This document shows, piece after piece, positions 1-15,265 of a DNA stretch of 20,000 nt. The stretch lies in the IMG/VR virus record IMGVR_UViG_3300042507_001994. One strand, written 5' to 3'. The stretch comes from an uncultured virus (IMG/VR IMGVR_UViG_3300042507_001994) (Duplodnaviria; Heunggongvirae; Uroviricota; Caudoviricetes). The notes beneath the pieces were generated by a model. The model was not told where the DNA came from. It saw only the letters and a list, made by a program, of their open reading frames with translations, and did not search any database. How positions within the stretch are numbered: position 1 is the first letter of the stretch; every line of letters begins with the position of its first letter. The translations under genes were made by a program, and so were the position numbers.

Positions 1-390
1 TTCTCCGTTCTCTTCCGTGATGACCTCAAAGCCCTTGTCGCTCTTGGCCCAGGATTCAAACTTCTTGATCTCGTCGTAGAGGACGATGCCGAACTCTTCC
101 GGGTGCATCACCAGAGCTTCGGTCTTGAGATACTGAGACAGCCTGGGGCCGGCGCGGAACGGACCATCACCGCCGTAAAGCTGGTTCTGACCGCTGGTCT
201 CACCCAGGCACAGACCCTCACACCGGGCCGACTGCGGGCAGGTAGACAGGTTGCGCTCGTTGATCTTCTGGGCGCTGGCAAGCCCAAGCCCCAGAGACGC
301 CACGCTGTTCTGGATGTCTTCCGGAAGCTGGTACTCGTTCAAGCGGGTCTTCTGCAGCTTCCCGTTTTCACCAAGGAGGGTGCCGACGTT
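1..390 (-). other. Cys-triad domain (CX5CX3C), GP88-like / putative radical-SAM-related, within the polyvalent protein (truncated by the window edge)
   Basis: LLGENGKLQKT...SLGLGLASAQKINERNLSTCPQSARCEGLCLGETSGQN...KTEALVMHPEEFGIVLYDEI. Cys codons at 238-240, 220-222 and 208-210. Family call from recalled consensus. Confidence 0.55.
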
Positions 391-3300
391 GTGCTCGTCC
401 TTGAGCACCTGCCGGGCCTGGGCGAGCTTGGCACGCTGATCTGCCGGCGAGAGTTGCTTGTACGCAGAGATGGCAGACTCAAGGCCCTTGCCGATGTCAC
501 CAATCGTCGTGGTCTTGGCGATAGCCTCGCTGCGCGGCTTGTAGAGCGTGAACAGCTTGGTCATCTTCATCTTCTCGGCGAAGGCATTGCCCTCTGCCAG
601 TTGGATGAAGAAGTCCTTCCGGCCATCCGAATGCTCCATGTCGAACTGGAGCATCTCCGGCGGCACCTGAACCATCACGTTGGCTTCAATCGGACCCTGA
701 TCGATGTTGCCAGCCCTGGTCCGGACAGCAGCAGGATTGGACTCGTTGGTCAGGTAGATCCGGTTGGACGTTGGGCTGGTCGCCTTGAGTCTCTTGGTCT
801 TGGCGACTTCCCGGGCGGACAGATTGCTGGTCGGGAAGTACAGGGTGACCGTGCCATTCGCGTTGAGCGGCACGTTCAGAACAGGATGGTTCTCCTTGCC
901 CTTGGCAAGCTCTTTCTCCCCATACGGGGCTTTGATGGAGAGCTTGGGCGTTTCAACAGGCGCCTCGATCTGCCCCGCCGAGGTGTAGGGAAGAATGCCG
1001 TTCTGCTCTTCGTACTTCTCGGCGTCCTTCTCTTCCTGTGCAGTGTCTTTCCAAGAATCGGGCTCGATGGGGCCGGCACGAAGCTCGCCCCGCTCGGCCT
1101 TCTTGAATATCCGCTCTGCATCAAGCGCGGCACCAAATGCCTCCTTGATAGCCTGGAAGAAGTTCTGGATCTTCTTCAGCAGAGCCTGGAGCATCCCAGC
1201 AGGAGCCTTGGTGGCGCTGAAATCGGCAAAGGCATCAGCGATAGCCTCCTCCAGCATCGCCTCTTCGTCGCCGCCGTAGAACTTCATGTAGGCGTCGTAC
1301 CGGGACATCTGCCCTTCTTGCAGAGGCTGTCTGTTTACATTCTTCTTCTTCAGGTACTGATCGACCCACTTCTCCTTGGCCTGCCTCTCCAAAGACTTCC
1401 ACTGCGCCGGGGAGAAGAAGCCAAGCTCCTTCATGGCATGGATTGCTTCATGCCTCAGAGCAACGACAGGATCTGTCGCATCAAGTGCCAGACTGAGAAC
1501 CTTGGAGGCGTACTCCCCCTCGGCCTTCATGTCGGCAACCAACCGGAGACCCACATCCTTCAGGCCATACCGGGTCAGGATCCTCTGAAGAGCCTTGCCA
1601 AGTGCATCAATCTTGGCCTCAACATCCTTGGGAAGTTCCTTGGGCTCAGCTTCCCGGACAGAGGGCTTCTCTTCCGGCTTCTCTGCAGGCTCCATCTCCT
1701 TGCGGATCTCTTGCACAAGCTCAGGAGAGCTTGACCAGTTATCCCAGGACGCTTTCTGCTGACGGAGTTCCTTCTCCCGCTTCTTGAGTGCCTCGGGATC
1801 CTTGATGTCGATCCCTTCCTTCTTGGCGATCTCCGGGCGCCTGCTGGCGCCAGAGATGGCAGCAAGCCTCTGCGCAATCTGGTTCTGCTTGAGAGTGGCG
1901 ATCTTCGCCATCTCCTCAGCTTCCTTCATGGCGGAGTCATCAAACCCAAAGAGGTCACCACCCTCTAGCGCAGGACGGCCCTTGGAGATCTCCTGTACCG
2001 CCTTGATGATGTTTACAGCAGCAAGAGGGCTCTTCCCCTCCTGGATGGCCTTTATGCCGACTGCTTGGAGTCGGGAGTCTCCGGGGGCGGCGTTGGCGAT
2101 TGCGGCTGCGCCTGCGTCAGGGATGACATCGGCACGATGCGCCGCAACAAGCTCGGGACTTCCTTTGGTTGCGATGGCGAAGCCTTGCTTTCCCGGAGCC
2201 CGCGCCAGAAGACCTCTTGCGTCGGCATCTGCTTCTGGGATTCCTGCATTTTCAAAGTAGGCGACATAGTCCTTGACCTTCCCCTGTTGGTCCCGAATGT
2301 TCAACTCGGCATCCAGCATCGCTGCCTGTTTGGCATCGAAACCAGTAGCCTCTTCATGGATCTGGGCAGGGATGGTTTGTTCTCCACTGCGCTGGGCAAG
2401 ATCCAACCTATGCCGCCCGGAGATCACCTCCATGCGGCCATCGTTTCGCTTCCAGACCTGGATGGGCGCGACACCGCGCCGGTCAAACGTGCCGCCCAGG
2501 GCCTCAACAACACCCTTGGCATCAGCATCCGACTTGAACTGAGGAACGTCTTTCGACAGCATCAACTCAGCAAGGGGCAACTCAATGACGGGATAGCCAG
2601 CGACCGCGTGCTGCTCTGACGCTTGCTCGGCCTTCGCCTCATCCGCCGCGGCTTGCTCTTCTTCTTTGGTCTCAGCCTGGGCCGGCTTGGTCTCGGTGGG
2701 CTTGGCCTGCTCAGGGATCTCGGTGGCTGGCTTCTCTGCCGTTTCAACGGGAGTGAGCGGCAGCGTTGTCGGCGCAGCGCCTTCTGCAGGCTGTGTAGCC
2801 GTTTGTGTAACGAGATCGGGCGGGACAGTCTTCTCTCGGGGAACCCGCTGCGCCAGGATGGATTGAAGCGTGGATGCCCGCTGCTCCGGCGGCAGGTTCA
2901 TGGCATACGCCCTCACCTGATCCAGAGTGCCGACTGATCCATCGGGAAGGCGGAAGACATCCTCTCCCTCCGGGGCCGTTGAAACAACAGGCTCAGTGGG
3001 GGCGGCGGGCGGCGTCACCGGGGCAAGAGGCTGTTCTGCACGCCGAGCGGCGTCGATCTCCCGGCTCATCCTACGGGCGAAAGCAGAGTCGGACTCACCC
3101 TCTTGTTGACCCGGCAAACGCTCCACACCAGTGCGAGGAACAGCAAGTCCACCACCCAGGATGGCCCCGGCAGCACCTTCCATTGCGCCAGCACCAAAGA
3201 CATTCCTGAACAGAGGAACATCAAAGCCTTCACTCCTCAAGGCTATGTTCTGGGCAAGTTGAGACTGTCCAGCTTGTGCGAACTCAGGAGCGCCTTCTTG

Positions 3301-4143
3301 AAGAGCGCCAAGACCGACGCGGGACAGCAGGCCCCTCTCGGCATCTCGAAGAGCTTGCTGCTCTGCAACATCCTTGACAGCACCTCTGCTCAGCATGGAC
3401 GTCAGAGGACGTTCAATGCCCATACCGCCAGCAATTGCCCCCAACCCACCGGCAGCAACCATGGACGGAAGATTGGAACTTGCATAGGACTGAGCCTCTA
3501 GAGCCTTGGCCCGAGCGATCTCATCGGAGGCGCCCTTCTCCTTGTAAGCCTGCTCGACAGCCTCGTAGATGGAGCCCTTGACCTCACCAACCCCCATGGC
3601 CGCGCCGACAGCAGGCATGGCAACAGCACCGGCACGGGCCACACCAAGAGCAGCCCCAACAGGGCCAGAAGCAAGACCAGCAATGATTACCGGCGCGGTA
3701 GACCCAAGAGCCTGGGCCAGCGTATCTACAGGGGCGGTGGCTAGAGCCCGAAGACCAGCACCAACCTGAGCAAGGACACCCTTGTCTTCTGCCTCCTTGA
3801 GGATCTCTGCAACCCTTCTCTGGTCATTCTTTGCCTGAGAAGACAGAAGATCTGCCAGCCAAGTATCGGCAGACTTGAGTGCCTCTGATGCCGAAGATCC
3901 CGCCCCGAAGAGGTCGGCCAGCATCCTGATGCCACCAACACCGCCCCGGACAACCTGAAGGGGAACATCGAGGATCTGCCGAAGAACGCCGCTCTGTTCT
4001 GGCTGAGGGGCCGGAGGAGCAGTGATGGCCTGTCGTCCAACTTGAGATTGGACATATTGAATGATCTGGTCTTGTGTTGCTCCCTCCGGGGCAGTAACAC
4101 GATACCGATTGCCATCAGGAGCAGTGACTTCGTAAGTCGGCAT
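1..4143 (-). CDS. Large polyvalent virion-delivered protein (>1381 aa, C-terminus beyond the left edge): Gly/Ala hydrophobic region, ParB-like, HExxH zincin, ART-like and Cys-triad domains
   Basis: ATG at 4143, 2 nt after the upstream TAA (4146-4148). Manual translation reads MPTYEVTAPDGNRYRVTAPEGATQDQII... to ...FESWAKSDKGFEVITEENGE at position 1 with no stop seen. It is absent from the ORF track, consistent with having no stop in the window. Motifs: VISGRHRL, HEAIH...EEAIADAF, GTVTLYFPT...IYLTN, TCPQSARCEGLCL. Position after the internal-protein genes is typical of phage polyvalent proteins. Confidence 0.9.
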   Translation of the reverse strand, partial: MPTYEVTAPDGNRYRVTAPEGATQDQIIQYVQSQVGRQAITAPPAPQPEQSGVLRQILDVPLQVVRGGVGGIRMLADLFGAGSSASEALKSADTWLADLLSSQAKNDQRRVAEILKEAEDKGVLAQVGAGLRALATAPVDTLAQALGSTAPVIIAGLASGPVGAALGVARAGAVAMPAVGAAMGVGEVKGSIYEAVEQAYKEKGASDEIARAKALEAQSYASSNLPSMVAAGGLGAIAGGMGIERPLTSMLSRGAVKDVAEQQALRDAERGLLSRVGLGALQEGAPEFAQAGQSQLAQNIALRSEGFDVPLFRNVFGAGAMEGAAGAILGGGLAVPRTGVERLPGQQEGESDSAFARRMSREIDAARRAEQPLAPVTPPAAPTEPVVSTAPEGEDVFRLPDGSVGTLDQVRAYAMNLPPEQRASTLQSILAQRVPREKTVPPDLVTQTATQPAEGAAPTTLPLTPVETAEKPATEIPEQAKPTETKPAQAETKEEEQAAADEAKAEQASEQHAVAGYPVIELPLAELMLSKDVPQFKSDADAKGVVEALGGTFDRRGVAPIQVWKRNDGRMEVISGRHRLDLAQRSGEQTIPAQIHEEATGFDAKQAAMLDAELNIRDQQGKVKDYVAYFENAGIPEADADARGLLARAPGKQGFAIATKGSPELVAAHRADVIPDAGAAAIANAAPGDSRLQAVGIKAIQEGKSPLAAVNIIKAVQEISKGRPALEGGDLFGFDDSAMKEAEEMAKIATLKQNQIAQRLAAISGASRRPEIAKKEGIDIKDPEALKKREKELRQQKASWDNWSSSPELVQEIRKEMEPAEKPEEKPSVREAEPKELPKDVEAKIDALGKALQRILTRYGLKDVGLRLVADMKAEGEYASKVLSLALDATDPVVALRHEAIHAMKELGFFSPAQWKSLERQAKEKWVDQYLKKKNVNRQPLQEGQMSRYDAYMKFYGGDEEAMLEEAIADAFADFSATKAPAGMLQALLKKIQNFFQAIKEAFGAALDAERIFKKAERGELRAGPIEPDSWKDTAQEEKDAEKYEEQNGILPYTSAGQIEAPVETPKLSIKAPYGEKELAKGKENHPVLNVPLNANGTVTLYFPTSNLSAREVAKTKRLKATSPTSNRIYLTNESNPAAVRTRAGNIDQGPIEANVMVQVPPEMLQFDMEHSDGRKDFFIQLAEGNAFAEKMKMTKLFTLYKPRSEAIAKTTTIGDIGKGLESAISAYKQLSPADQRAKLAQARQVLKDEHNVGTLLGENGKLQKTRLNEYQLPEDIQNSVASLGLGLASAQKINERNLSTCPQSARCEGLCLGETSGQNQLYGGDGPFRAGPRLSQYLKTEALVMHPEEFGIVLYDEIKKFESWAKSDKGFEVITEENGE
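600..870 (-). other. ADP-ribosyltransferase-fold-like domain, apparently degenerate
   Basis: NGTVTLYFPTSNLSAREVAKTKRLKA...RIYLTNES...VMVQVPPEMLQFDMEHSDGRKDFFI fits the recalled layout of YH-x-T ... [IV]Y[LF]T ART domains, with Phe at the His position. Confidence 0.5.
1090..1620 (-). other. Zincin-like metallopeptidase domain (MPTase-PolyVal type)
   Basis: ALRHEAIHAMKELG (HEAIH at 1438-1452), then EEAIADAF (1228-1251) as a candidate third zinc ligand, then the amphipathic helix LLKKIQNFFQAIKEAF. Confidence 0.8.
2290..2600 (-). other. ParB/Sulfiredoxin-like N-terminal domain
   Basis: VIELPLAELML...PIQVWKRNDGRMEVISGRHRLDLAQRSGEQTIPAQI...AELNIR. GxHR motif at 2404-2427. Confidence 0.8.
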
Positions 4144-4145
4144 GG

Positions 4146-5792
4146 TTATTCCTGGCCGGGCGTTTTAACTTTTTCAATACTCCATCCTGCGGTGTTTACA
4201 GAGGATGGCATGGGAACACCTGCCTCTTGGCTCATTCTGGAAATGGCAGCATCAAGATTGCGGATTTCCTGGCTGTTTTTGAAAGACGTTTCAAAATCTT
4301 GTTGCATTTTTTCCCAAGCATCAGTCTTTTCTTTTGGTGCGTTGGGTGCGGAAGCGGCCATTTGAGCCAGTTTGACTGGAGTGCTGTTTAACCAATCCGC
4401 CCTTGCTTTTTGATACGTTTTGTTCCGGTTGTCCAGTGCTACGGTCAACCTCTGCAGACCGATCATTTCTCGCCCTTGTGCCGCGGAATCTCTTGAGGCC
4501 CTTGCCGCCGATTCCCGAGCTTTAACATCTTGAAGCCTAGTATCGATCTCGGCTTGCGTCTGCCGCATTCTGACGTTGTTATCGGCAATCTTCTGATCCG
4601 TCTCCCGCTTCAGATCTGCGTCACGGTTTTGGATGGCATACTTCCTCTGTTCTTCCAAAAACTCAGACTCTTGATACTGAGAATTGAGAAGACGAACCTT
4701 CTCGTTGAGAACAGAGATGCCCTCTTCTGCCTTCTCGGCCCTAGCTCTCCTGCCAGCAAGAATAGAGGATAGGCCCCCGGCCAGGGAGCCCATCGTCTTG
4801 CCGCGCTGAGGATTGATGCTTGCCGCAAGTGAAAGCAGGGCTTCAGGATCATCAATCAACGGACGCCGGGCAGCATCAATCCTTCCTTGAAGTTGCCTGA
4901 TTCCTTCTGAACGAATCTTCTCCGCGTCCTGTTGAGACCGTTGAAGCCTTCCCGCTGAGAGTTGTTCCATGCGCTGCCGCGCAGCCAACACCTCTGGAGA
5001 GATGGCCGCCCCCTCTTGGACGATTCGATTTCGTTCTTCTTCCGCTCTTTCAAGTCTTTGAGAGTAGGGCGAAAGACCTGTTGGAGCCTCTGCCGCAGGC
5101 GAAGTTGCGGCGGGCGGAGTAAAGATCGAGGTAAGCGGCGTCACGCCGGTCGCAGAGCGTGCGGCGGGCGGAGATGACGAAGCGGCGGTGCGGGCAGGTG
5201 TTTGAGCAGCAGACCGCCCTTGCGCCAACCATGGATGCTGCTGCAGCATCCGTTGCACTGCAGGCTCAGACCCGGATGCTTGAACAAATTCAAATTGCTG
5301 GCGAATCCTTTGGCGCCGAGCCTCTTCAACTCGCGCAGCATCTTCTTGGTCAGTGACACGTGAGCCGCCAAAGCTAGGATCAAGCTGAGCAACGATGTCC
5401 CCGTCAAGATCGCCAACCTCCCCGCCAGGGGCATAAGACTTCATCTCCCCACCAGAAGCAGCCATGACAGCCATGACCTGATCTGCCACTGGAGGCGTTT
5501 GTTGCGCCGCAGCATTCTGGGCTTGAGCTTGTTGGCCCATGGCTCCTTGTTGTAGAGCCTTGGCCTTCATCGCATCGGCATAAGCAGAAGCAACAGCCCA
5601 CTTGGGCCGCATGTCATTTGGGTCGTTGTAGATCCTGATCAGGTCTTCTGCTGGGATCTGTTTCAACGCCCTGGTGTATGCAACAGGGTTTCGCCCTTGT
5701 TGTGCAGGAAGGGCTGTAAACGCCCCTGCTTGGCCGGGCATGGCAGGTTTGTTTCCGCCTTGGATAAGGGATTGAAGACCTGCCATGATCAT
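4146..5792 (-). CDS. Putative internal virion / DNA-ejection protein, helical coiled-coil (548 aa; alternative start 5786)
   Basis: Long ORF with ATGA overlap with the upstream stop. Q/A/E/R-rich helical composition, amphipathic segment ALLSLAASI...GSLAGGLSSILAG, and the motif MAASGGEMKSYAPGGEV. Function inferred from gene order. Confidence 0.7.
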   Translation of the reverse strand: MIMAGLQSLIQGGNKPAMPGQAGAFTALPAQQGRNPVAYTRALKQIPAEDLIRIYNDPNDMRPKWAVASAYADAMKAKALQQGAMGQQAQAQNAAAQQTPPVADQVMAVMAASGGEMKSYAPGGEVGDLDGDIVAQLDPSFGGSRVTDQEDAARVEEARRQRIRQQFEFVQASGSEPAVQRMLQQHPWLAQGRSAAQTPARTAASSSPPAARSATGVTPLTSIFTPPAATSPAAEAPTGLSPYSQRLERAEEERNRIVQEGAAISPEVLAARQRMEQLSAGRLQRSQQDAEKIRSEGIRQLQGRIDAARRPLIDDPEALLSLAASINPQRGKTMGSLAGGLSSILAGRRARAEKAEEGISVLNEKVRLLNSQYQESEFLEEQRKYAIQNRDADLKRETDQKIADNNVRMRQTQAEIDTRLQDVKARESAARASRDSAAQGREMIGLQRLTVALDNRNKTYQKARADWLNSTPVKLAQMAASAPNAPKEKTDAWEKMQQDFETSFKNSQEIRNLDAAISRMSQEAGVPMPSSVNTAGWSIEKVKTPGQE

Positions 5793-6637
5793 CCCGTCGT
5801 GGTGTTGGACTGGTTCCCGAACAGCATCTGATACAGAGCCAGCCCGCCGATGCCGCCTTGGGTCAGCGCCCCCAGCAAGGAGTCGCCTTCACTGTACTTC
5901 GGAGCTTCAAGCGGGAGGCCCTGCAAGAGGCTCTGCATGTACGTCGCCTGCTGGTAGGGATACTTCAGAGACTCCTGGAACTGCTGGTAGCCAAAGTCCA
6001 ACGGCTGTTGAGCGATGGCCCGCTCTTTCTCGCCCGCAGCCATTTGCTGCTGGAGTGCATCCAGCCCGAACTTGGCGCCGTACTGCTGCGCCTGCTCGCC
6101 GTACTGTTGGGATTTCAGCCCAAGCTCAGACTCGGCAAGACGTTGTTTCTGGGCCTGATCAAACGCAGCCTGCAATCCCTTGATGTTGATGTCCGAGATC
6201 TGTTGACCCAGGTTGCGCTGCCGCTCCGCCTCCATGATCGCCTGTCGGCTACCGCCGTAGGCGCCCGCTTGAGCAAGCCGCGCCTGCTCCGATTGGCGGC
6301 TGATGTCAGCCTGCCTGCGGGCTTCCCGTGCAGCGATGTCAGTGACATTACTCGTATACGGGTTCATGTAGTCTTGAACAGAACCCAGAGCGCCAAGACC
6401 CGTGTTGAACTGCGTTGGGTTGTACGTGCCCAGGTTCTGAAATCCTGTAAACGCGTTCTTTAGCGCATCAGGCGTTGCAGCAAACCGATCACCTGTAAAC
6501 GGCTGGTAGGCTTGATTGGCCGCGCCCCATCCTTTGGACAACATGTCCTGAACATAGGGTCCGAAGCTGGCAGAGAGCGTGGACTGACCCGGGGTGATCG
6601 CCGGGCTGGTCGTGCCGGTAGTTGTGGTGACATCCAT
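5789..6637 (-). CDS. Putative DNA transfer/pilot (ejection) protein, 282 aa
   Basis: ATG at 6637 overlaps the upstream TGA, with AGGAG 6 nt upstream (GTG at 6640 is an alternative start). Motifs YMNPY and AGAYGGSRQA, Gln-rich body, and C-terminal hydrophobic Gly-rich segment LLGALTQGGIGGLALYQMLFG, as recalled for podovirus-like internal proteins. Confidence 0.7.
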   Translation of the reverse strand: MDVTTTTGTTSPAITPGQSTLSASFGPYVQDMLSKGWGAANQAYQPFTGDRFAATPDALKNAFTGFQNLGTYNPTQFNTGLGALGSVQDYMNPYTSNVTDIAAREARRQADISRQSEQARLAQAGAYGGSRQAIMEAERQRNLGQQISDINIKGLQAAFDQAQKQRLAESELGLKSQQYGEQAQQYGAKFGLDALQQQMAAGEKERAIAQQPLDFGYQQFQESLKYPYQQATYMQSLLQGLPLEAPKYSEGDSLLGALTQGGIGGLALYQMLFGNQSNTTTG

Positions 6638-7389
6638 CACGCTCTCCTTTGAAGCTGGTTCATCAGCGCGTAGAGTGCCTTGGCGCCGCCTGCTTGGTTG
6701 ACTGCACGCTTGGGCACGTAGGCTTCTCCGTTGGACACCCTGGCCGGGGTGTTCCCATCGATTGTCGCAGGGATGTGGTCGCTTGTGCCAGTCCCCGGGC
6801 CCACAATCGGTCGAGCGCCGGGAAGCATTTGAGCAATACCCCTTGGGCCCCCAGCGCCGTCCACCGCCCGCTTGGTCATCACGAAGCCGCCATCCTCCAT
6901 GCGAAGAGGGTTCTTGTGGGTGCCTGTGACAGCACCGCCATGGGCATAGGCGTGCATAAGACCGCCTTGGGCAGCGTACTGAGCGATGGGCCCGTACTTC
7001 CCCTGCACCATGGTGCGGTTCGTCGGAGTGGGAGATGCCACCTGGGTATAACCGCCGCCCGAAGGACTGGCGCGGTTCAGTGCCCCAAGAAGCGCCATCA
7101 GACCCACTGTGCCGCCCATCCCGACGCCGGATCTCATCAGGCTGTTGAACGCCTGCATGGACGGGTTTGAGAGAAACGCCCTGAGAGGGTCAAGGGCGCT
7201 GGCTTGATATGACCCCGCTGCTGTGGGATTGTTGGCACCAGATACGCCGGGGCCTTCTTGCGCGGCGGTTTCTGACATACCGCTGAGCCACGTATAGGCC
7301 GGAGGAATGTCGTACCCCAATGCGGCGTTTACATCCGCATCAGACACACCGGGCAAGTAATAATCTTCAGCGGTGTAATAATCATCCAT
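6637..7389 (-). CDS. Virion-associated protein with AxGG motifs and a duplicated tape-measure-C-terminus-like (GPGTGTSD...GE) domain, 250 aa
   Basis: ATG at 7389 is preceded by GGAGG and lies 1 nt after the upstream TGA, so it is preferred over the track start 7413. Contains hydrophobic GVGMGGTVGLMALLGAL, YAAQGGLMHAYAHGGAV, and GPGTGTSDHIPA...RVSNGEAYVPKRAV...ALYALM. Confidence 0.75.
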   Translation of the reverse strand: MDDYYTAEDYYLPGVSDADVNAALGYDIPPAYTWLSGMSETAAQEGPGVSGANNPTAAGSYQASALDPLRAFLSNPSMQAFNSLMRSGVGMGGTVGLMALLGALNRASPSGGGYTQVASPTPTNRTMVQGKYGPIAQYAAQGGLMHAYAHGGAVTGTHKNPLRMEDGGFVMTKRAVDGAGGPRGIAQMLPGARPIVGPGTGTSDHIPATIDGNTPARVSNGEAYVPKRAVNQAGGAKALYALMNQLQRRA

Positions 7390-7390
7390 A

Positions 7391-10060
7391 TCATCCTCCG
7401 TAGGGCAATCCATAGGGCGACATTCTCAGCCCTGCTTGAACATCTGCAATGTTGGGCCGATCCTGTTCTTGCTTCTTCTGCTGATTCATCATTGCCATCA
7501 GCGCGAATAAGCCCTGTAGGTCTCCCATTGGCGAGCGGGTGGGCGCGGGTGGGCGCGGCGCCGGAGCGGGTGCTGGGGCTGGTGCCGGCGCAGGAGCGGG
7601 CGCAGGAGCAGGCGACGGGGCCGCGATGACATTCCCCGCGTAGTCCACGATGTTGCCCGTGGAGGACTCAAGTCCTTGATCTGCGCCGCCAGGGACGATA
7701 GCACCAGGGACGCCATTCAGTTGCTCCAACAGGTCAAAAATTTCCTGCCCATAGTCCCCTTCGGTAGCAGCAGTATCTAGCGTCAGCGTGCCGCCGTAGG
7801 TTGGGTCAAAGACGCTTTCTTGCGTTAGGTCGTAACCTTCATCCACGCTTCCGACGCCACCCTCTGGCGGCAAAGTAGGAAGAATCTCTTCCAGGATTTG
7901 CTCCCACTCGTCCTTTGCTGGTAAACCAGTATCAATGACAGGTCGTTGGGTCGCGACATCTTCATCAATGTACTTGAAGATGTCATCAAGCGACGGGGGA
8001 GGCGGCTCAACAGGAAGTGGTTCCGCAAAGGTCGGCTCTGCAGGAGGCTGCTCAACAACCGGTAATTCAACAAACGGCGGCTCTACAGGCGGTGGCTCAA
8101 CAAACGGTGGTTCGGTAAGAAATGGCTCCTCAAACTCAGGAAAAAAGGGCGGCGGCTCAACAGGCGGTGGTTCTGTAAGAAGAGGCTCTTCAAACTCGGG
8201 GAAAATGGGTGGCGGCTCAGCAAGAGGCGGCTCAGCAGGAGCGGGTTCGGTAAGGGGCGGCTCCTCAAACTCGGGGAAAAGGGGTGGTTCTGCAACAGGC
8301 AGCTCTACAGGAGGCGGCTCTGTAAAAAGCGGTTCTTCAAACTCCGGGAATAGCGGCGTCTCTTCAAAGAACGGAGGCTCAACAGGAGGCGGCTCTACGG
8401 GCTCAGGCTCAACAGGCGCCAAGTCGTAAATATTGGGCGTGAAGTATTCCGGCTCGGGCTCGAAGAACGGCGGCGCTGTGACCTCTACCGGGGGCTCATC
8501 AGACGGAGGTGCTTCTGTTGCTTCGCTGGGTGTCGTGATGTACGGCTCAACGAATTCATCCTTCGGCTGTTGAGTTTCTGGAGTGAAGATGTCGGGCTCT
8601 GCTGGCTCTGTGGGCAGCGTGACCGGCGGATTGATGTTCAGCAGTTCTTCTGCAAGATCTTCAATCGTTCTTTCAGTCTCAAAATCCCCGCTAAAAACAT
8701 CTCCTTCACCGCCTGTAAACGCGTCTTCTTCAGACACAACATCGCGTGACGGCTGAACTACATCCAGGGCCCGTGAAGGATCTCTGTATGCCTGATCAAT
8801 AACGGCTTGCTGTTGATTTTCTTCAAGCTGTTGGACAAAGTCAGTAGCCGCCGTGAGCGCCTTCATCGGGTCGATCTTGCCGGAGGTGCCAAGCTCAACA
8901 GCCCCCCGAACAACGCTTGACGGCAGACCCAAAGTCTCACTAGCAGACCCAATAGCGGAGCCTGTCAAACTACCCACGACAGCGTCGCCAAAGTCCTGCT
9001 TGCCGCTAAGCTCCCCCATGATGCCGCTGGTGATGGCACGCTCTGCAGCTTTCTCCAATGGGCCAAGGGATTCAGGCACAAGGCCGCTAACAACACTGGA
9101 CACACCTGTGCCGGCCAAGGGCAAAACGCCTGCCTTGGCTACATCGCCCAGGTCACCGCCAGTGATTGCGGACAAGCCCGCATTCACAATGCCCTTACCT
9201 ACCGCAGCCGTTACTGCAGCTTCCGAGACCCCCAATGCGCCTGCAATGCCCTTGGCTGCTTCAGCAGGAAGAAGCGCATTGCCAAGGGATGAGATTGCCT
9301 CTCCCCCGTAGCCAGGGATACCGACGACGGTTGTGGCTACCGGCAGCACAAAGTCCTTAAAGAAGGACTTGATGTCGTCGTCGTCGCCCGTCTTGGTCTG
9401 CGCAACAACCTCTCCAGACGGCAGTTTGAATCCCGTGTAGTTGTTGTAGTTATGGAAATTGCTGCGCTTGGAAACAAAGTCGTAGCCCTCTGCCCGCTTT
9501 TGGTCTACGAACTGCTGCAGTGCCCTTGTGGGATTGCCCTGCATGAAGCCGCCTTCACTATCGTAGCCGACTTCAAACATTTGCCCCTTGAACCCAAGCT
9601 GCGGCGCAACTTGAGCCCAACGGCTGTAATCTACCGGGCCCTGAGACGGCACGCCTCCTTCGTCAGTCTGAACGTAGTCAGGAACCCATTCGGAGTAGAT
9701 CTTTGACGCGGGCTCGTATGCTTGCGTAAACGGCAGTACCGCAGACTCCCAAGAGCCAAACGCTTTCTTGCTGAAAAACGGAGATGCCTTTTCAAAGCCT
9801 TCCAGCACCTTCATTGCATAGCCAAGGCGCTCCTGATCTGATGCCTTGGAAACATCCTCTGGGACGCTGTCGGCTGCGTCGGTGTAGTCACGAATGACGC
9901 GCTGCCCTGAGCCCTTGACATTGGTTCCCCAAGCGTCAAGAACCTTGTCAACCGCTGACTTGACCTTGGGGTCAACCACGCTGCGCTGCGCCATCAAGGC
10001 AGCCGGCATAACCGGCCCGAAGGAGTAGTCGATTGCGGAGTTATCAGGAGCTGTTGTCAT
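7391..10060 (-). CDS. Putative internal virion protein with Gly/Ala hydrophobic region and a long acidic Pro/Glu linker, 889 aa
   Basis: Long ORF with ATGA overlap. Gly/Ala-rich hydrophobic middle, EPP repeats and an (AP)n tract. Function inferred from position only. Confidence 0.65.
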   Translation of the reverse strand: MTTAPDNSAIDYSFGPVMPAALMAQRSVVDPKVKSAVDKVLDAWGTNVKGSGQRVIRDYTDAADSVPEDVSKASDQERLGYAMKVLEGFEKASPFFSKKAFGSWESAVLPFTQAYEPASKIYSEWVPDYVQTDEGGVPSQGPVDYSRWAQVAPQLGFKGQMFEVGYDSEGGFMQGNPTRALQQFVDQKRAEGYDFVSKRSNFHNYNNYTGFKLPSGEVVAQTKTGDDDDIKSFFKDFVLPVATTVVGIPGYGGEAISSLGNALLPAEAAKGIAGALGVSEAAVTAAVGKGIVNAGLSAITGGDLGDVAKAGVLPLAGTGVSSVVSGLVPESLGPLEKAAERAITSGIMGELSGKQDFGDAVVGSLTGSAIGSASETLGLPSSVVRGAVELGTSGKIDPMKALTAATDFVQQLEENQQQAVIDQAYRDPSRALDVVQPSRDVVSEEDAFTGGEGDVFSGDFETERTIEDLAEELLNINPPVTLPTEPAEPDIFTPETQQPKDEFVEPYITTPSEATEAPPSDEPPVEVTAPPFFEPEPEYFTPNIYDLAPVEPEPVEPPPVEPPFFEETPLFPEFEEPLFTEPPPVELPVAEPPLFPEFEEPPLTEPAPAEPPLAEPPPIFPEFEEPLLTEPPPVEPPPFFPEFEEPFLTEPPFVEPPPVEPPFVELPVVEQPPAEPTFAEPLPVEPPPPSLDDIFKYIDEDVATQRPVIDTGLPAKDEWEQILEEILPTLPPEGGVGSVDEGYDLTQESVFDPTYGGTLTLDTAATEGDYGQEIFDLLEQLNGVPGAIVPGGADQGLESSTGNIVDYAGNVIAAPSPAPAPAPAPAPAPAPAPAPRPPAPTRSPMGDLQGLFALMAMMNQQKKQEQDRPNIADVQAGLRMSPYGLPYGG
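7548..7625 (-). repeat. (Ala-Pro)n low-complexity coding tract
   Basis: Translates as APSPAPAPAPAPAPAPAPAPAPRPP with mixed synonymous codons. Confidence 0.9.
7976..8560 (-). repeat. Pro/Glu-rich imperfect coding repeats (EPPPV units, four FPEFEEP copies)
   Basis: Seen in translation, with recurring DNA GGCGGCTC(A/T)ACAGG. 195 codons contain no Lys or Arg. Confidence 0.9.
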
Positions 10061-11406
10061 GTCAGATCCCAGAACGCCATCGTGCCGATGGCATCATGCG
10101 TGCCGCTCAGTGCGCGAACCGCGATGGTGTAGGTATCGCTTACCCCCGCCAGAGTGGCGCCAAGCTGCAGATCCCAGTTGTAGTCGGCGCCATTGGCGAT
10201 TGGTGCAGACGATTGCGTTGATGCCACGACATAGCTTGAGAAGATGATCGTGCCCCCGGTCAGGGCAGTGGCCGACAGGTCTTGCTCCACATTAGCCGAT
10301 GGGGACGCTGCCCAAGAGGCGCCGGTCAAGGTGGCATTCTTGATCATCGCCACTTCAAACGTGACGGTTGAGGTCGCGGTTGGCAGCACCGAGTACCCGT
10401 CCGGGATCACAACCGCCCCCGTTCGTCCAGAAGCCAGCCTGATAGACATCAGAGGCACAAAGTTGACACCAATGTTGGTGTTGGCCGTCGTCATGCGGAC
10501 AACGTCAGTAGCCACTCGCTTCTCATAGCCACCCTCAGAAATCACCGTGGAGCAGATCTGCTTGAGCGTAGCCGCAGTGCTGACCCCAGTGTTGGTGATC
10601 TCGTACCTGACCGGCAGGATTGCCGTGGTCATGTAAACGCTGGTCAGGTTGTTGGCGTTTTGGAACGTGTGGCAGATGATGACCTGACCGTTGATGACAA
10701 ACCCAGCCCGGACGGAGCCAACACCAAGCCACTCGAAGTCTTCCCAGAAGATCTGCGCCTTGGTCAAGTCAAGCGTGAAGCCCGAGTCTCCGGTGCCATT
10801 GAGCTTGTCGCCGTTCCAATCGGCCTGGGCCACGCGGGTGTCCACCGCCACCCCCGTGACATACGTCCTGCGGACGATGTACACCGTGGTGCCGTCGCGC
10901 TCCAGGAACACCCCGTTTTCGGTGTTGAAGTAACCAATACGGATGCGTTGGTTCTCGTTTGCCGTGGGCATCACGAAGGTGTTCAGCACCAGCAGGCTTT
11001 TCCCAGGCTGGTAAGAGAATGACCGATACGTCTGGCGCACAACCTCCGAGCCGCTGCTCGTGGTGACGTTTAACTCAACCGTGCTGGAGTTGGCGCTGTA
11101 GGTCACATTGCCGCCCGTAGCGGTGCTCTCACTGAACAGGTCGTTCTTGGCGTAGCGGTTCTGGCTGTCGAACAGTGTGAAAGGCTGGCTGAAGCGAGCG
11201 CGTCCAAACGCATCCAGCGCGGAGCCGTAGAAATTAACCGCCACTGGGGATGCGCTCACAATCTGCTCCAGGAGGTTGTCAAGCTGGTTGAAGTAAATCC
11301 GCAGAACGCTCAGCAGCTTGTCGAAGTACTGCGGATCGTAGGTGCGCGAGGCGACCGGCAGTGCCGGAGCCTTGAACCGCTTGATGATGTTGGCCCAGAT
11401 ACTCAC
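10057..11406 (-). CDS. Putative tail needle/spike-like structural protein, 449 aa
   Basis: GTG start in a GTGA overlap with the upstream stop. Short N-terminal APALP...YDPQYFDKLLSVLRIYFNQLD helix, then a beta-rich domain beginning DAFGRARFSQPFTLFDS. Lies directly after the nozzle-like gene. Confidence 0.6.
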   Translation of the reverse strand: MSIWANIIKRFKAPALPVASRTYDPQYFDKLLSVLRIYFNQLDNLLEQIVSASPVAVNFYGSALDAFGRARFSQPFTLFDSQNRYAKNDLFSESTATGGNVTYSANSSTVELNVTTSSGSEVVRQTYRSFSYQPGKSLLVLNTFVMPTANENQRIRIGYFNTENGVFLERDGTTVYIVRRTYVTGVAVDTRVAQADWNGDKLNGTGDSGFTLDLTKAQIFWEDFEWLGVGSVRAGFVINGQVIICHTFQNANNLTSVYMTTAILPVRYEITNTGVSTAATLKQICSTVISEGGYEKRVATDVVRMTTANTNIGVNFVPLMSIRLASGRTGAVVIPDGYSVLPTATSTVTFEVAMIKNATLTGASWAASPSANVEQDLSATALTGGTIIFSSYVVASTQSSAPIANGADYNWDLQLGATLAGVSDTYTIAVRALSGTHDAIGTMAFWDLT

Positions 11407-13556
11407 GATTTGCGCCCGTCAGGACGAAGATCGATCCGGAACTTGCCCAACTGCCACTGCACGCCCAGCGAGTTTGAACGCGCCTTGACCGCCATCTGCC
11501 TGCCGCGCACGCGGATGTACAGGTTGCCCTGGTAGGGTGTGATGGTGCCTGAGAAGCGCTCGACGCCGTTGTTGGCGTCACGCTGGATCGTGCGCTCGTT
11601 GTTGAGTGCCACCGACATGTTGGCCGAAGGCGCCACGTTCGTCACCCCCCGCGTGTACCCGGAGCCCGAGTTCTGCAGGGGCAGGAGCGACATATTCAGG
11701 GACTGGTTCTCAACCGCTGTGGTAGACCCTGCAAAAGTCACATCAGGCAGCATCCGCGTGACAAAGCCAAAGTTGTGGCCGTCGTCAATGTCGAATTCGG
11801 AGGAAACGATGTAGGAGTCAATAGCCACTGGAGGATTCACCGACCCGTCGTCACAACCGATCTCGTGGTACAGCAGTTGATAGTTGTAGTCCGCTGCTAC
11901 GGGGATGTTGGAAAAGACACTGGCGTCGTTCCAAGCCGTCCGAGCCATGCTGCCGTAGTACCAGATCTTTTCAGCGTAGTTGTAGACGGCGTAGCGGTCA
12001 ACCGTAGTTGAGGAAGCGGAGCAGTAGAACCACCACACTTCACTGAACTGCTCAACGGTGGACGCAAAGACCTGAAGGTTTTGGCCTTGATTGAAGTCGT
12101 CAAAGATGAACTTGCGGATGTCGCACTGAAGCGTGCTCGTGCGCCCGTCGAAGACGTAGAACTTCTCGTCGCCCATCCAGTACACCACGCCCGCCGCCAC
12201 AGCCCAGGCGCGGTCACTGACGATGGTGACGTTGTCAGCAAGGATCTGCGAGCCCCAGACGATGGGCGGGCCGAGGTACTGCAGGGAGTACAGCGCCGTG
12301 TCCGTCCAGACCAGGATCTCCTGACGCGTTTGCGCCACGGCAGCGATTGCCGAGCCCCGAGACAGCGTCAGACTTCCCGCCTGCCCCGTAGCGGCGGGGG
12401 TCCAGTTGGCGGCGCTTTCCTGATCCGACCAGCGAATCAGCATGGGGTTGAGCGTGGTCGAGCCATAGTCCGTCGTGCCGAAGGCTAGGACGAAGCGCGA
12501 GGCGTCGGAGACAAGCCGGAAGAGCGCCGCAGACGGCGTGTCGCTGGCGCCGGGCAGGGTGGAGATGTCTACACCACGGTTCGTGAATCCCGCTGAAGAG
12601 TCCCAGTAATAGATCCCGCCGCCCTTGGGGCCGTAGATTAGATCCTCACCGAAGTTGGCGTGGTTCCACAGCCCGATCTGCAGGGGGTTGCCGAAAGTGA
12701 ACGCCCCGCCCCCGCCCCAGCTACCGCTGCCCCAGCCGCCCCCGCCCCAGCCCGTGCTTGTCGTACTGGTAACCTGTTGGAGTTCCGACCCAGCGCTGAC
12801 TTGGTAGTTAGACACTACCCCTGCACCACCTGAAGCACTAGAGGTAGCGTTGGTGGACGCTTGGATGAAATACGTAGCTACGTTCTCAGCGCCAAGCTGC
12901 GCGCCCGCAGGGATGTCGCTCGTAAACGCACTGCTGAGCGTGTACACGCCCGCCCCGCCCGTACCAGTGATTGTGCGCGTCTCACCGTTGTAATCCAGCG
13001 AAGCACCGGAAACAATGATCCCTGGAGAGTTGACTGCACTGACAGTCAACGTAGTGCCGCTGGATGAGCAAGTGATCAGCGTGACGTTCGAGAGGATTTG
13101 ATACTCGGAAGTACCGCCGACACCTGCGGTATTGAGGTTTATGCCACCAATAGTCCCGGGGGACGTAAAGGTGACGTAGGAACCCACCGTGAGCAGTCCG
13201 TTGACGAACGTCCCGACACCGGTAGAGGTGTCAACCACGGCGACATACGGGAAGCCGTTATAGGTGTTGAGAGACGTCAGCGCCCCAGTGACTCGGATCG
13301 GCGTGATGTCGTAGTACTGCCCGTAGTACACGTAGTACTTCAGGTGCGTGCCAAGGCCCAGGTAGATGTTCCAAGGCCACAGGGCACGACAGACACCCAG
13401 GAAGGTATCGTTGTTGAGTTGTTGCCAGCCGCCGATCTTCTCCGGTTGCCCGGAGCGAAAACGCACTTTGTCGCACTCGTACCATCCGCCTTCTGCGGAG
13501 TAGCGGGTGTTTTCCCGGAAGATCCCGGGACGAAGTTGTAGCGTCTTCAGGGGCAT
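11403..13556 (-). CDS. Tail nozzle / head-stabilisation protein (P22 gp10- or T7 gp12-like role), 717 aa
   Basis: N-terminus MPLKTLQLRPGIFRENTRYSAEGGW...DKVRFRSGQPEKIGGW, GWGGGGWG tract, LIRWSDQE, many beta-propeller-like W/Y/D strands, and C-terminus RVRGRQMAVK...WQLGKFRIDLRPDGRK. All are recalled as typical of this phage structural family. Confidence 0.7.
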   Translation of the reverse strand: MPLKTLQLRPGIFRENTRYSAEGGWYECDKVRFRSGQPEKIGGWQQLNNDTFLGVCRALWPWNIYLGLGTHLKYYVYYGQYYDITPIRVTGALTSLNTYNGFPYVAVVDTSTGVGTFVNGLLTVGSYVTFTSPGTIGGINLNTAGVGGTSEYQILSNVTLITCSSSGTTLTVSAVNSPGIIVSGASLDYNGETRTITGTGGAGVYTLSSAFTSDIPAGAQLGAENVATYFIQASTNATSSASGGAGVVSNYQVSAGSELQQVTSTTSTGWGGGGWGSGSWGGGGAFTFGNPLQIGLWNHANFGEDLIYGPKGGGIYYWDSSAGFTNRGVDISTLPGASDTPSAALFRLVSDASRFVLAFGTTDYGSTTLNPMLIRWSDQESAANWTPAATGQAGSLTLSRGSAIAAVAQTRQEILVWTDTALYSLQYLGPPIVWGSQILADNVTIVSDRAWAVAAGVVYWMGDEKFYVFDGRTSTLQCDIRKFIFDDFNQGQNLQVFASTVEQFSEVWWFYCSASSTTVDRYAVYNYAEKIWYYGSMARTAWNDASVFSNIPVAADYNYQLLYHEIGCDDGSVNPPVAIDSYIVSSEFDIDDGHNFGFVTRMLPDVTFAGSTTAVENQSLNMSLLPLQNSGSGYTRGVTNVAPSANMSVALNNERTIQRDANNGVERFSGTITPYQGNLYIRVRGRQMAVKARSNSLGVQWQLGKFRIDLRPDGRKS

Positions 13557-13560
13557 AGCA

Positions 13561-14576: not shown

Positions 14577-14578
14577 GA

Positions 14579-14989
14579 TTACCCCTTGGTCGTGATGACA
14601 TCATCACCGCGCTGGACAGTGACCTTGTCGCCTTCCACATTGACCTTCATAGACGGCTCATGCCGCTCAGGCTTGTCCAGCCGGTCGATCAGTTCCTTGA
14701 TGATGGTGATCTCGGGCTTCTCTTCCTTCTTGGTCTCGTTGACGATGCCGTTGACCATCTGTATTAAAGCCATGGTGGCGGTTGCCACAAGCCCAATGAC
14801 GGCAGGCAGCGCCTCGGTATTTAGGAAGGCCGACGACACCACGCCCACGAGGACCAGCAGAAAGATCCAGATGATGGCCGTCTTTCCGATGGCCTTGGCC
14901 GCGACCTCTTTTGCTGTGGCTTGAGCCTCTAGGCGCTGAAGTTCTACAGCAGCCTGTGCCTTCAAGGTTTTCAGATCAATTGGTTCCAT
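14579..14989 (-). CDS. Membrane protein with two predicted TM helices, 136 aa (possible lysis accessory)
   Basis: ATG at 14989 in a TGATG overlap, preferred over the track start 15145. Hydrophobic segments AIIWIFLLVLVGVVSSAFL and ALPAVIGLVATATMALIQMV, and a charged C-terminal tail. Confidence 0.75.
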   Translation of the reverse strand: MEPIDLKTLKAQAAVELQRLEAQATAKEVAAKAIGKTAIIWIFLLVLVGVVSSAFLNTEALPAVIGLVATATMALIQMVNGIVNETKKEEKPEITIIKELIDRLDKPERHEPSMKVNVEGDKVTVQRGDDVITTKG

Positions 14990-15261: not shown

Positions 15262-15265
15262 GACG

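Follow-up and report, generated by a model that had tools for sequence, protein, structure and literature searches.

What is a module of tape measure proteins doing in a protein of 250 residues, in a phage that appears to be short-tailed? The question is raised by a window of 20,000 nucleotides (i.e., the whole stretch of DNA analyzed here) from an uncultured virus (IMG/VR record IMGVR_UViG_3300042507_001994), a phage with a genome of about 65.7 kb. How tape measure proteins (TMPs) and podovirus ejection proteins exit the virion and build a conduit for DNA is poorly understood, and sequence features common to both classes are few. TMPs are long, mostly helical rulers, typically above 600 residues, whose length scales with the tail; their gene normally lies between frameshifted tail assembly chaperones and distal tail or hub genes, in a genome that also carries a tail tube gene. 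An earlier note on this DNA had described the C-terminal region of a small protein, p250, as an internally duplicated domain resembling the end of a TMP.

From N to C terminus, p250 consists of an acidic, variable N-terminal end, a Gly-rich hydrophobic helix, YAxGG motifs, and a C-terminal two-unit domain. When its reading frame is taken from an upstream ATG at 7413 (6637..7413, minus strand), it encodes 258 residues, and the residue numbers used here follow this longer form. The ATG at 7389 is nevertheless likely to be the true start, because a GGAGGA lies 7 nt upstream of it, the TGA of the upstream gene is 1 nt away, and a relative that is 96% identical (P0001) has 250 residues. The features of the protein are as follows:

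6637..7389, minus strand: p250, 250 residues from the ATG at 7389, as given in the list of open reading frames
7075..7131, minus strand: SGVGMGGTVGLMALLGALN, Gly-rich hydrophobic stretch, residues 95-113
6934..6978, minus strand: YAAQGGLMHAYAHGG, aromatic-A-x(1,2)-G-G motifs ahead of the module, residues 146-160
6640..6918, minus strand: two-unit domain, residues 166-258
6826..6909, minus strand: copy 1, the degenerate unit PLRMEDGGFVMTKRAVDGAGGPRGIAQM, residues 169-196
6760..6804, minus strand: GPGTGTSDHIPATI, Gly-rich loop with the invariant Asp212 and the first strand of copy 2, residues 204-218
6643..6747, minus strand: copy 2, the complete unit PARVSNGEAYVPKRAVNQAGGAKALYALMNQLQRR, residues 223-257, with the invariant Glu230

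Conservation was assessed with a family profile (A1) made from the window protein and 33 of 120 listed relatives, an alignment of the two-unit domain (A2, 125 rows), and an alignment of a family with a single unit (A3, 67 rows). The hydrophobic stretch has a top 19-residue Kyte-Doolittle mean of 1.24, which is moderate and under a firm transmembrane call; it is conserved in the family consensus, with a helix at 102-112 in the AlphaFold2 model, and may interact with a membrane or form a coiled segment. Between it and the two-unit domain, A148, G150, G151, A155, Y156, A157, G159, and G160 are invariant in A1.

The two-unit domain was modeled by AlphaFold2 as one compact domain (residues 170-258; pLDDT 85-98, as block means over 171-258). 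Within it, the aligned segment of copy 1, PLRMEDGGFVMTKRAVDGAGG (residues 169-189; 6847-6909), and that of copy 2, PARVSNGEAYVPKRAVNQAGG (residues 223-243; 6685-6747), share 10 of 21 residues at an offset of 54, which is the best gapless 21-residue self-match of p250; GPGTGTSDHIPA stands between the two copies. The earlier note had placed its two copies at exactly these positions. When A1 profiles of residues 166-203 and 219-258 were compared using hhalign, the score was 22.0 (P = 7.8e-5, 37 gapless columns, probability 62%), whereas 200 column shuffles gave a mean of 8.5 (SD 2.1) and a maximum of 16.2. By DSSP of the AlphaFold2 model, copy 1 has strands at 170-172 and 177-179 and helices at 181-186 and 190-196, and copy 2 has strands at 222-226 and 231-233 and helices at 235-240 and 244-257, with an additional strand (214-218) before it; the modeled order of strand-strand-helix-helix is thus the same in both halves, again at an offset of 54. 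Profiles and model together indicate that the two halves are related units, as the earlier note had proposed; each is predicted to be a β-hairpin followed by two helices.

The alternative is that there was no true duplication, copy 1 being an unrelated hairpin-helix that resembles copy 2 through convergence and a shared Gly/Ala-rich composition. The identities are indeed only 10 of 21, a number reached by 4 of 500 shuffles of p250; the hhalign probability is modest, and extending the alignment of the halves weakens it (P = 6e-4, 49 columns, one gap of 9 residues). However, none of the 200 profile shuffles reached the real score, the predicted secondary structures are in identical register, and a K-R-A-V..A-G-G core is common to both copies and conserved across the family. 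In addition, there are single-unit relatives with the same N-terminal half, as would be expected if a copy had been added: P0257 (253 residues) has a p250-like N-terminal layout (TRTMTQGKYGPIAQYAAEGG) and a unit at its C-terminal end, with copy 1 absent. We therefore regard the alternative as highly improbable.

The two copies are not equivalent. Copy 2, which carries a 9-residue hairpin insertion, has the full pattern of the module (GPGTGxSD-x-IP..x-G/D-E-aromatic), i.e., a Gly-rich loop with Asp, an IP(A) strand, and an x-G-E hairpin with Glu, and its helices end in ..GG..LY.LM. In copy 1, the SD..IPA segment is absent and Gly176 occupies the position of the invariant Glu of copy 2 (GG versus GE, as in the earlier note), so that it is without equivalents of both residues that are invariant in the superfamily, Asp212 and Glu230. 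D212, I218, A224, E230, and Y232 are invariant in the 125 rows of A2, as are the single-unit equivalents D183 and E201 in the 67 rows of A3. The earlier description of one active and one degenerate half thus holds for the degeneracy of copy 1 at the motif level, while "active" stands for conservation of the motif in copy 2 and nothing further. Catalysis or metal binding would also be compatible with a strictly invariant pair of acidic residues.

The kinship with TMPs was evident in several searches. A tblastn search returned 205 phage records at E ≤ 1, and one with a single unit as query returned 546 at E ≤ 0.01, nearly all listed rows lying under annotated TMP genes; hundreds of cultured phages carry the unit in this setting, and the segment best matching TMPs was GPGTGTSDHIPATI. 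Among the 34 members of the p250 family, 16 matched the TMP PHROG 6090 and 15 the TMP PHROG 8927 at E ≤ 0.01, p250 itself matching TMP PHROGs only at E values of 0.002-0.006 and over internal stretches. By these sequence matches, the module of p250 is kin to a module in bona fide TMPs, which bears out the earlier claim that the motif is characteristic of such proteins. This tie was already known to annotators; the two-unit form is an anatomical variant.

The unit pattern is present in Emalyn, Seahorse, DMS3, PhiBP82.1, DSL-LC04, and Douge. In Pseudomonas and Burkholderia phages it lies about 100 residues from the end of the TMP (about residues 1022-1056 of 1160 in DMS3 and 1225-1254 of 1354 in Burkholderia phage PhiBP82.1), but in actinophage TMPs it is internal (about 923-966 of 1570 in Emalyn and 930-976 of 1350 in Seahorse). 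The reference to a tape measure "C-terminus" is therefore apt for DMS3 and PhiBP82.1, but not for Emalyn and Seahorse. The unit of DMS3 is of the very same kind as residues 1019-1085 of JBD30 gp46 (8rk3_A), and two sites in Douge gp16 match it. An aromatic-A-x-G-G motif precedes the unit in TMPs as it does in p250, i.e., FATGG in DMS3, YAGGG in Douge, and FANGG in DSL-LC04.

The sole cultured-phage context in which we found both halves was the Emalyn type of Gordonia TMP (NC_031234 gp15, residues ~911-973). There, GGFIV..LLSAL is followed by GPGTGTSDSIPA..ARVSNGETYF, hairpin insertion included. Positions 7-75 of the domain HMM, spanning both copies, matched residues 911-973 with a nominal E value of 1.8e-7 (Z set to 4e6), and in at least 26 of 30 listed rows of this type the tblastn alignment began at query residue 7-10, within copy 1. 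Unlike in p250, the module lies at about 60% of the length of a 1570-residue TMP, encoded between tail chaperone and minor tail genes, and the final helix of copy 2 is unmatched.

The invariant pair D212/E230 (D183/E201 in the single-unit family) is what favors an enzymatic reading, in which the module would be a small enzyme, either an acid protease or self-cleaving element or a peptidoglycan hydrolase, with Asp212 and Glu230 as the catalytic pair, copy 2 active, and copy 1 a scaffold. It may be added that the Emalyn module is directly followed by a part of the TMP that resembles a peptidase (a likeness seen by eye, with no family match), and that the TMPs of T5 and lambda are cut near their C-terminal ends (PMC10038345; lambda as cited there). 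The candidate serines, however, vary: the single-unit family (LADGEF) and some two-unit members have Ala in place of Ser227, several members have A, D, or K in place of Ser211, and A2 shows invariance at neither position. In Pfam, p250 and all of 69 relatives lacked a family match (E ≤ 0.001), and even at E ≤ 1 any one family was matched by at most 2 of 125 members; there was no NCBIfam match, and no hydrolase or peptidase occurred among the listed fold-search matches. A unit of 45-55 residues is also very small for an active site, and the G-E turn could equally be a structural hairpin cap. An enzyme is thus decidedly unlikely, and the (auto)proteolytic role suggested by the earlier note finds no backing in the serines or in peptidase family matches.

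Other searches were equally sparing. The two-unit domain had no Pfam, NCBIfam, or PDB sequence match, and Foldseek gave no match in the PDB at E ≤ 1e-3. A fold search of BFVD found uncharacterized phage proteins only, and the ESM Atlas gave viral hypothetical clusters only, the nearest named cluster being crAss_CARG1 (0.86, below the tool's lead level). Searches of PDB sequences with the A1 and A3 profiles gave no matches at E ≤ 1 and E ≤ 10, although profiles of this full-length kind did not even recover the JBD30 chain, found when a DMS3 fragment was the query.

Is p250 itself a TMP? Its length argues otherwise, since it has 250 residues of which only ~90 are confidently folded, in an α/β arrangement, and it matched no TMP family among the curated models of Pfam and NCBIfam. 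Its position argues the same, because its neighbors are p889 and p283, unlike the surroundings of the module at the Emalyn, DMS3, and PhiBP82.1 loci. The genes concerned are as follows:

10057..13556, minus strand: p449 and p717, the first genes of the conserved cassette, for virion structural proteins
7391..10060, minus strand: p889, upstream of p250, with a Gly/Ala-rich hydrophobic region and Pro-rich PEFEEP repeats
5789..6640, minus strand: p283, downstream of p250 and translationally coupled to it, its start overlapped by the p250 stop (TGATG)
4146..5792, minus strand: p548, found in 23 of 45 related loci
1..4143, minus strand: the first 1381 residues, within the window, of a 2631-residue protein

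Apart from the weak motif matches of p250, no tube, sheath, chaperone, or TMP PHROG was matched by the 14 window proteins, the 2 giant proteins, or the 34 proteins of genome positions 1-37.5 kb. This accords with the earlier observation that no tape measure, tube, or sheath gene is in the window, and extends it to the scanned rest of the genome. Judging from these absent long-tail matches and from its relatives, the phage is probably short-tailed.

Across related viral loci the gene order p717-p449-(variable)-p250-p283 is conserved. The p449/p717 region matched phrog_1645 (E = 3e-108) and phrog_3287 (E = 6e-61), both annotated "virion structural protein," p449 resembles gp65 of HMO-2011, and p449 and p717 were each found upstream in 38 of 45 loci. 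Directly downstream of p250, p283 was present in 41 of the 45; it had no Pfam, PHROG, or NCBIfam match. The variable member is p889, detected in only 13 loci and without a family match in Pfam or PHROG. We rejected the idea that p250 and p889 are related to longer proteins by fission or fusion, the best E values of p889 against the N-terminal parts of the fused forms P0130 and DSL-LC04 being 0.84 and 3.4, respectively. Farther downstream, p548 and the 2631-residue protein matched ParB-like and unknown PHROGs; they are presumed to be ejected or "DNA transfer" proteins, and their DSL-LC04 counterpart is annotated "DNA transfer protein."

DSL-LC04 (OR003939) has a syntenic cassette, in which the slot of p250 is taken by a 759-residue "tail tape measure protein" that ends in one unit and is followed by a 294-residue gene homologous to p283 (E = 6e-8). 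The part of the DSL-LC04 paper that was accessible gives this gene no function. The arrangement also recalls the podovirus ejection proteins (T7 gp14/15/16 and P22 gp7/20/16), which are likewise large genes without families that follow tail or structural genes and end in a giant protein of the "DNA transfer" type. The likeness observed is one of gene arrangement rather than of sequence or fold, and none of these T7 and P22 proteins is known to carry the module. Gene order suggests that p250 would be packaged in the virion and ejected.

The module is widespread, occurring once per chain in the TMPs of siphophages and as the very end of thousands of unannotated phage proteins. A profile search with the domain found 5232 representatives (50% identity) at E ≤ 1e-3, and among the best 150 of these it was nearly always at the C-terminal end of the protein. 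The single-unit form, known from proteins of aquatic phages such as P0257 and the DSL-LC04 protein, and with at least 7747 clusters (90% identity) in a search that saturated at 8000 candidates, is far commoner than the two-unit form, for which relatives similar in length to p250 make up 609 clusters at E ≤ 0.001. Copy 1 was found in none of 119 listed single-unit relatives, many of which have a basic C-terminal tail after the unit. The term "stand-alone" used by the earlier note fits p250 itself, but that state is lineage-specific, since 42 longer proteins (460-1074 residues) carry the same domain, in 40 of them at the extreme C-terminal end. With the full 258-residue protein as query, tblastn against 50,697 cultured-phage records gave no match at E ≤ 1e-3; a megablast of the window against cultured phages and a literature search with the motif strings of the module also gave none. 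The module is among the most abundant unnamed phage domains measurable here, and it is without an entry in Pfam, in NCBIfam, or among solved structures.

What might such a module do? We consider the chances about even that it serves as a non-enzymatic docking or pairing "hook" in p250, a conserved small protein of a virion or ejection cassette. Such a hook would keep a protein exiting by way of the tail channel in register with the tail tip or a partner. In the p250 subfamily, the partner surface for which single-unit forms would need a second chain would come from the same chain, through the degenerate copy 1. This reading of p250 draws on the JBD30 TMP, gp46, in which residues 1022-1066 were predicted to form a hook from a short hairpin and two helices; the authors speculate that this hook might anchor the TMP in the baseplate once its C-terminal domain has left (PMC11445458). 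The published hook matches the order of elements in each half of p250, both being predictions. The JBD30 hook (near-identical in DMS3) resembles p250 in having a G-P-G-T-G-T-S-D-S-I-P...x-x-E-F hairpin and two helices, preceded by F-A-x-G-G. JBD30 gp46 has one short-form unit, about 100 residues from the end of a 1158-residue ruler and ahead of a C-terminal coiled coil serving as the baseplate plug, whereas p250 has two units at the very end of a protein of 250 residues, in a genome without tail-tube genes. The TMP residues built are the last 33 in 8rk3 and the last 42 in 8zdo, and the hook lies outside the built part of 8rk3.

The JBD30 authors also predict a cut right after the hook, and name the T5 anchor as a structural parallel (PMC11445458). 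In phage T5, the stretch of 42-43 residues that precedes the maturation cut in pb2* (T1085-R1127) was seen docked between subunits of the baseplate hub after receptor binding (PMC10038345). By its position, the T5 anchor recalls our module: it is a short element after a hydrophobic, channel-forming stretch, which becomes the C-terminal end and anchors the ejected protein. Among PDB sequences, a search with the unit retrieved no chain of T5 at E ≤ 10; the comparison with T5 is thus an analogy, made by the authors of the JBD30 study.

The predicted cut raises another reading, in which the module with its YAxGG leader would be a maturation cut site or packaging signal, recognized by a phage or host protease, and not a docking element. 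In p250, DMS3/JBD30, Douge, and DSL-LC04, the unit does have an aromatic-A-x-G-G motif 3-12 residues ahead of it. In the podophage proteins, however, the module is already at the C-terminal end, with nothing left to cut off, and the pattern [FYMWRLIV]A.GG was not enriched in any of eight structural proteins of this phage (at most two matches each, a count reached by 22 to 300 of 300 shuffles). In the literature consulted, no phage has a cut mapped at the module. A signal of this kind seems very unlikely to us. We also think it unlikely, if somewhat less so, that the target of the module is on the host side, in the cell wall or envelope (peptidoglycan or membrane), an attachment that would fix ejected proteins and TMPs at the site of entry and not to parts of the phage.

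For the docking or pairing hook, the models of single units are of interest. The single unit of P0257, modeled alone, was poorly predicted (pLDDT about 50-57), as against the high values for the two-unit domain. This contrast fits the idea of pairing but is only suggestive, because the alignments differ in depth (67 versus 125 rows). When P0257 residues 160-253 were predicted as a two-copy complex from A3, the score was 0.19, the mark being 0.42; no controls were run, and the result speaks neither for nor against pairing.

Judged by sequence comparison, the p250 domain is a two-unit variant of a widespread, unnamed TMP module whose function we infer. Because the two-unit version is predicted to fold alone with very high confidence, it is the member with which a first experimental structure and binding assays should be easiest to obtain, and such results would bear on the proposed hook of JBD30-type TMPs as well. 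A broader reading, which we offer tentatively and would not call probable, is that the module may be an ancient, universal "exit anchor" common to long-tailed TMPs and short-tailed ejected proteins. A single unit would then fold only once outside the virion, by pairing with a partner in the tail tip or with the units of further chains. In the subfamily of p250, duplication of the unit and decay of one copy would have turned this clasp between chains into a self-contained pseudo-dimer. If that were true, the two classes of protein that cross the cell envelope would be partly homologous, and not merely analogous.

The feature under study lies in this open reading frame:

6637..7413, minus strand: p250 ORF counted from its first ATG, 258 aa, with the two-copy feature in its 3' third

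Translation probably begins at the second ATG (7389), because GGAGGA stands 7 nt before it, the TGA of the upstream gene is 1 nt away, and P0001, a relative 96% identical to the window protein, is 250 aa long. The stop codon of p250 overlaps the ATG of the next gene (TGATG); from this overlap and the tight spacing, p889, p250, p283 and p548 look translationally coupled. Translation of the ORF returned the two 21-residue stretches, the intervening GPGTGTSDHIPA and the GG/GE difference exactly as an earlier note had given them.

That note had proposed an internal duplication with one degenerate half. Within the single sequence, the top gapless 21-residue self-match was at offset 54 with 10/21 identities, a figure equalled in 4 of 500 shuffles of the protein. 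Profile-profile comparison of residues 166-203 with 219-258, using the window protein aligned with 33 of the 120 relatives listed, gave a score of 22.0 over 37 gapless columns (P 7.8e-5); 200 column shuffles averaged 8.5 ± 2.1 and peaked at 16.2, so that none reached the real score. A longer, weaker alignment (P 6e-4), with a gap of 9 residues, set GGAVTGT of copy 1 against GPGTGT of copy 2; on this pairing, copy 1 would be a unit without the SD..IPA..G hairpin.

The note had also called for structure prediction, and an AlphaFold2 model displayed a like order of elements in both halves. It was built on the window protein plus 124 picked relatives, i.e., 25 of the 120 similar-length matches and 99 of the 126 new ids of a profile search (those left out were mostly long proteins). 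Block-mean pLDDT was 85-98 over residues 170-258, the remainder being poor (mean 72.7), and the DSSP elements recurred at offset 54, with strand 214-218 as an additional element in copy 2 only:

First strand: E170-172 in copy 1, E222-226 in copy 2
Second strand: E177-179 in copy 1, E231-233 in copy 2
First helix: H181-186 in copy 1, H235-240 in copy 2
Second helix: H190-196 in copy 1, H244-257 in copy 2

From the profile statistics and the predicted structure we concluded that the duplication is genuine, though ancient and partial; the description of copy 1 as the degenerate half holds.

Relatives of similar length numbered 609 at E≤0.001, from 2176 candidates, and the domain was also present on 42 longer proteins (460-1074 aa), in 40 of which the S.GE motif lay 27-38 residues before the C-terminal end, the remaining two being single-unit forms. 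Searching 1.84 billion representatives with a profile brought up 5232 proteins at E≤1e-3, of which 519 passed E≤1e-10 and 79 passed E≤1e-30. Of the 5232, the 150 top-ranked proteins were 99-1143 aa long, and their match ended at or near the C-terminus. No curated family covers the domain: Pfam scans gave none on the window protein or among 69 relatives at E≤0.001, every family matched at E≤1 among 125 members was matched by at most two, and NCBIfam gave none.

P0257, a relative of 253 aa, has the N-terminal layout of p250 but only the complete unit. Its C-terminal 104 residues matched at least 7747 clusters (139-443 aa), a lower bound because the search saturated at 8000 candidates, and a copy-1-like motif occurred in none of the 119 other proteins among the matches listed. 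D212, I218, A224, E230 and Y232 were invariant in the alignment used for AlphaFold2; the equivalents of D212 and E230 were invariant too when P0257 was aligned with 62 of the 119 listed matches and four others, where the Ser227 position is Ala. Because the single-unit form is much commoner, lacks copy 1 and has the same invariant Asp and Glu, the two-unit protein would be a derived subfamily. The earlier note had suggested an (auto)protease, a claim that found no support: the serines vary across the family and no peptidase family or fold was among the matches. The invariant Asp and Glu would suit a catalytic or metal-binding role, which we rate as quite unlikely.

The claimed kinship with tape measure proteins (TMPs) was sustained. 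The PHROG matches of p250 itself were weak (E 0.002-0.006, on internal stretches of TMP families); across the family, phrog_6090 was matched by 16 of 34 members, phrog_8927 by 15/34 and phrog_7025 by 7/34. With the last 72 residues as query, tblastn matched 205 records of cultured phages at E≤1 (Gordonia 89, Mycobacterium 45, Arthrobacter 40), and all 40 rows listed fell under the tape measure gene, which a few RefSeq copies name 'endolysin'. The single unit of DSL-LC04 (OR003939) found 546 records at E≤0.01, including Pseudomonas 63 (DMS3 and JBD69 among them), Burkholderia 39 and Vibrio 32. As query, the full two-unit domain matched 49 records, exclusively Gordonia, Arthrobacter or Rhodococcus; of the 30 rows listed, at least 26 have an alignment that starts within copy 1. 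The unit lies at these positions:

Emalyn: residues ~923-966, TMP of 1570 aa
Seahorse: residues ~930-976, TMP of 1350 aa
DMS3: residues ~1022-1056, TMP of 1160 aa
PhiBP82.1: residues ~1225-1254, TMP of 1354 aa

The earlier label of a TMP C-terminus is therefore correct for the proteobacterial phages (DMS3, PhiBP82.1) but wrong for the actinophages (Emalyn, Seahorse). Right behind the two-unit module of the Emalyn TMP, residues ~990-1060 (..STYPGHQESD..GIDWSG..) look like an embedded peptidase-type lytic domain.

The DMS3 unit also matched the chain sequences 8rk3_A (JBD30 gp46) and, at two sites (964-1002 and 1412-1453), 8zdo_S (mycobacteriophage Douge gp16), so TMPs too can carry several units per chain, not in tandem. 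The two Douge units are far apart, each with YA(G/N)GGFLSG ahead. No solved structure covers the module: according to the papers on these two chains, the built residues are the last 33 of gp46 and the last 42 of gp16. The JBD30 authors speculate there, with T5 as analogy, that release of the C-terminal domain lets a hook, predicted at residues 1022-1066 as a short hairpin with two helices (their Appendix Fig. S8), anchor the TMP within the baseplate (PMC11445458). In T5, the 42-43 residues ahead of the cut after R1127, which come right after a hydrophobic channel-forming stretch, are seen docked between hub subunits (PMC10038345). We found no sequence similarity between T5 and the unit. The layout of p250 fits the JBD30/T5 logic, with a Gly-rich hydrophobic helix followed by YAxGG motifs and the module at the C-terminal end, and so does the module being the natural C-terminus of the podophage proteins.

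Modelled alone, the single-unit protein was poor (unit pLDDT about 50-57), whereas the two-unit domain was very good. This contrast is as expected if a unit needs a partner, which the duplicated form would provide within the chain, but it is only suggestive because the two models were built on alignments of unlike depth. The layout, the natural C-terminal position and the pLDDT contrast lead us to prefer docking or pairing, with no enzymatic activity, as the role of the module in p250; we give this reading as a whole an even chance and are surer of the anatomy of the domain. Binding of the module to the envelope is unlikely, and its use as a processing signal very unlikely; the AxGG tag is not enriched in any of 8 structural proteins of this phage.

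The window is positions 41288-61287 of a 95,467-bp virus record (G000) that looks like a chimera of two phages. In G000, large terminase, portal and primase/helicase each occur twice; its positions 1-127 recur exactly at 65722-65848; and GC is 57.8% ahead of the junction versus 63.2% behind. A 66,006-bp record is 100% identical to G000 over 1-20000 and 60995-66197 and 99% identical over 60001-61279; it has nearly nothing of 79-95 kb, and so represents the first genome only. Together these observations place the window in what appears to be a ~65.7-kb circularly permuted genome. The chimera would join this complete genome, at the common region (junction ~65722-66197), to ~29.7 kb from another, GC-richer phage, which has a TerL, portal, primase, P22-type adaptor/gp10-like genes and tailspike-like gene of its own.

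The ~65.7-kb genome runs from TerS, TerL, portal, major head protein and an adaptor-like gene through a 2140-aa protein, tail-fibre-like genes and lysis genes to p717-p449-p889-p250-p283-p548-p2631:

18211-20000 and beyond (G000 59498-65920), minus strand: 2140-aa ORF behind the head/adaptor genes
10057-11406, minus strand: p449, resembling gp65 of podovirus HMO-2011
7391-10060, minus strand: p889, Pro-rich near-repeats ..PEFEEP(L/F)(L/F)TEPPPVEPP.. in a long run, plus (PA)n
5789-6640, minus strand: p283, conserved ..AGAYGGSRQ.., no known family
1-4143 (G000 37535-45430), minus strand: 2631-aa protein, last of the cassette

Apart from the motif matches of p250, none of the 50 scanned proteins of this genome matched tube, sheath, chaperone or TMP families, which bears out the claimed absence of tape-measure, tube and sheath genes; with the relatives DSL-LC04 and HMO-2011, this points to a short-tailed phage. 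The 2140-aa ORF, with no PHROG match, may encode a giant fibre or decoration protein. In the 2631-aa protein, residues 546-602 are like a ParB nuclease-type stretch (E 4e-5 to 9e-5), and PHROGs 9854, 18222 and 1617, all of unknown function, match it over long stretches. Among cultured phages, p449 has some of its closest relatives in the T4-like cyanophages S-RIM12, S-WAM2 and S-RIM8, as 'virion structural proteins' (about 47-50% identity, 73-78% of the query covered); with HMO-2011, one structural gene thus spans very different phage types.

Gene order was kept across 45 related IMG/VR loci: p283 lay downstream in 41 of them, while upstream p449 was present in 38 and p717 likewise in 38. For p548 the count was 23, and for p889, the least conserved member, 13; several absences are truncated loci. 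The nearest named genome, the metagenome-assembled DSL-LC04, shares this cassette; the place of p889 and p250 is taken by a 759-aa 'tail tape measure protein' with one unit at its end, followed by a p283 homologue (E 6e-8; 294 aa, with AGAFGGTRE for AGAYGGSRQ) and a 'DNA transfer protein', the counterpart of the 2631-aa protein. The p283 protein is a candidate partner of p250. The DSL-LC04 paper, in its available part, groups the TerL with Pelagibacter phages and assigns no function to the cassette genes.

We found no published description, supplements aside, of the module in short-tailed phages. What is new here is a duplicated, self-contained form of a very abundant, uncharacterised tape-measure 'hook' module, located in a podophage-type ejection cassette.
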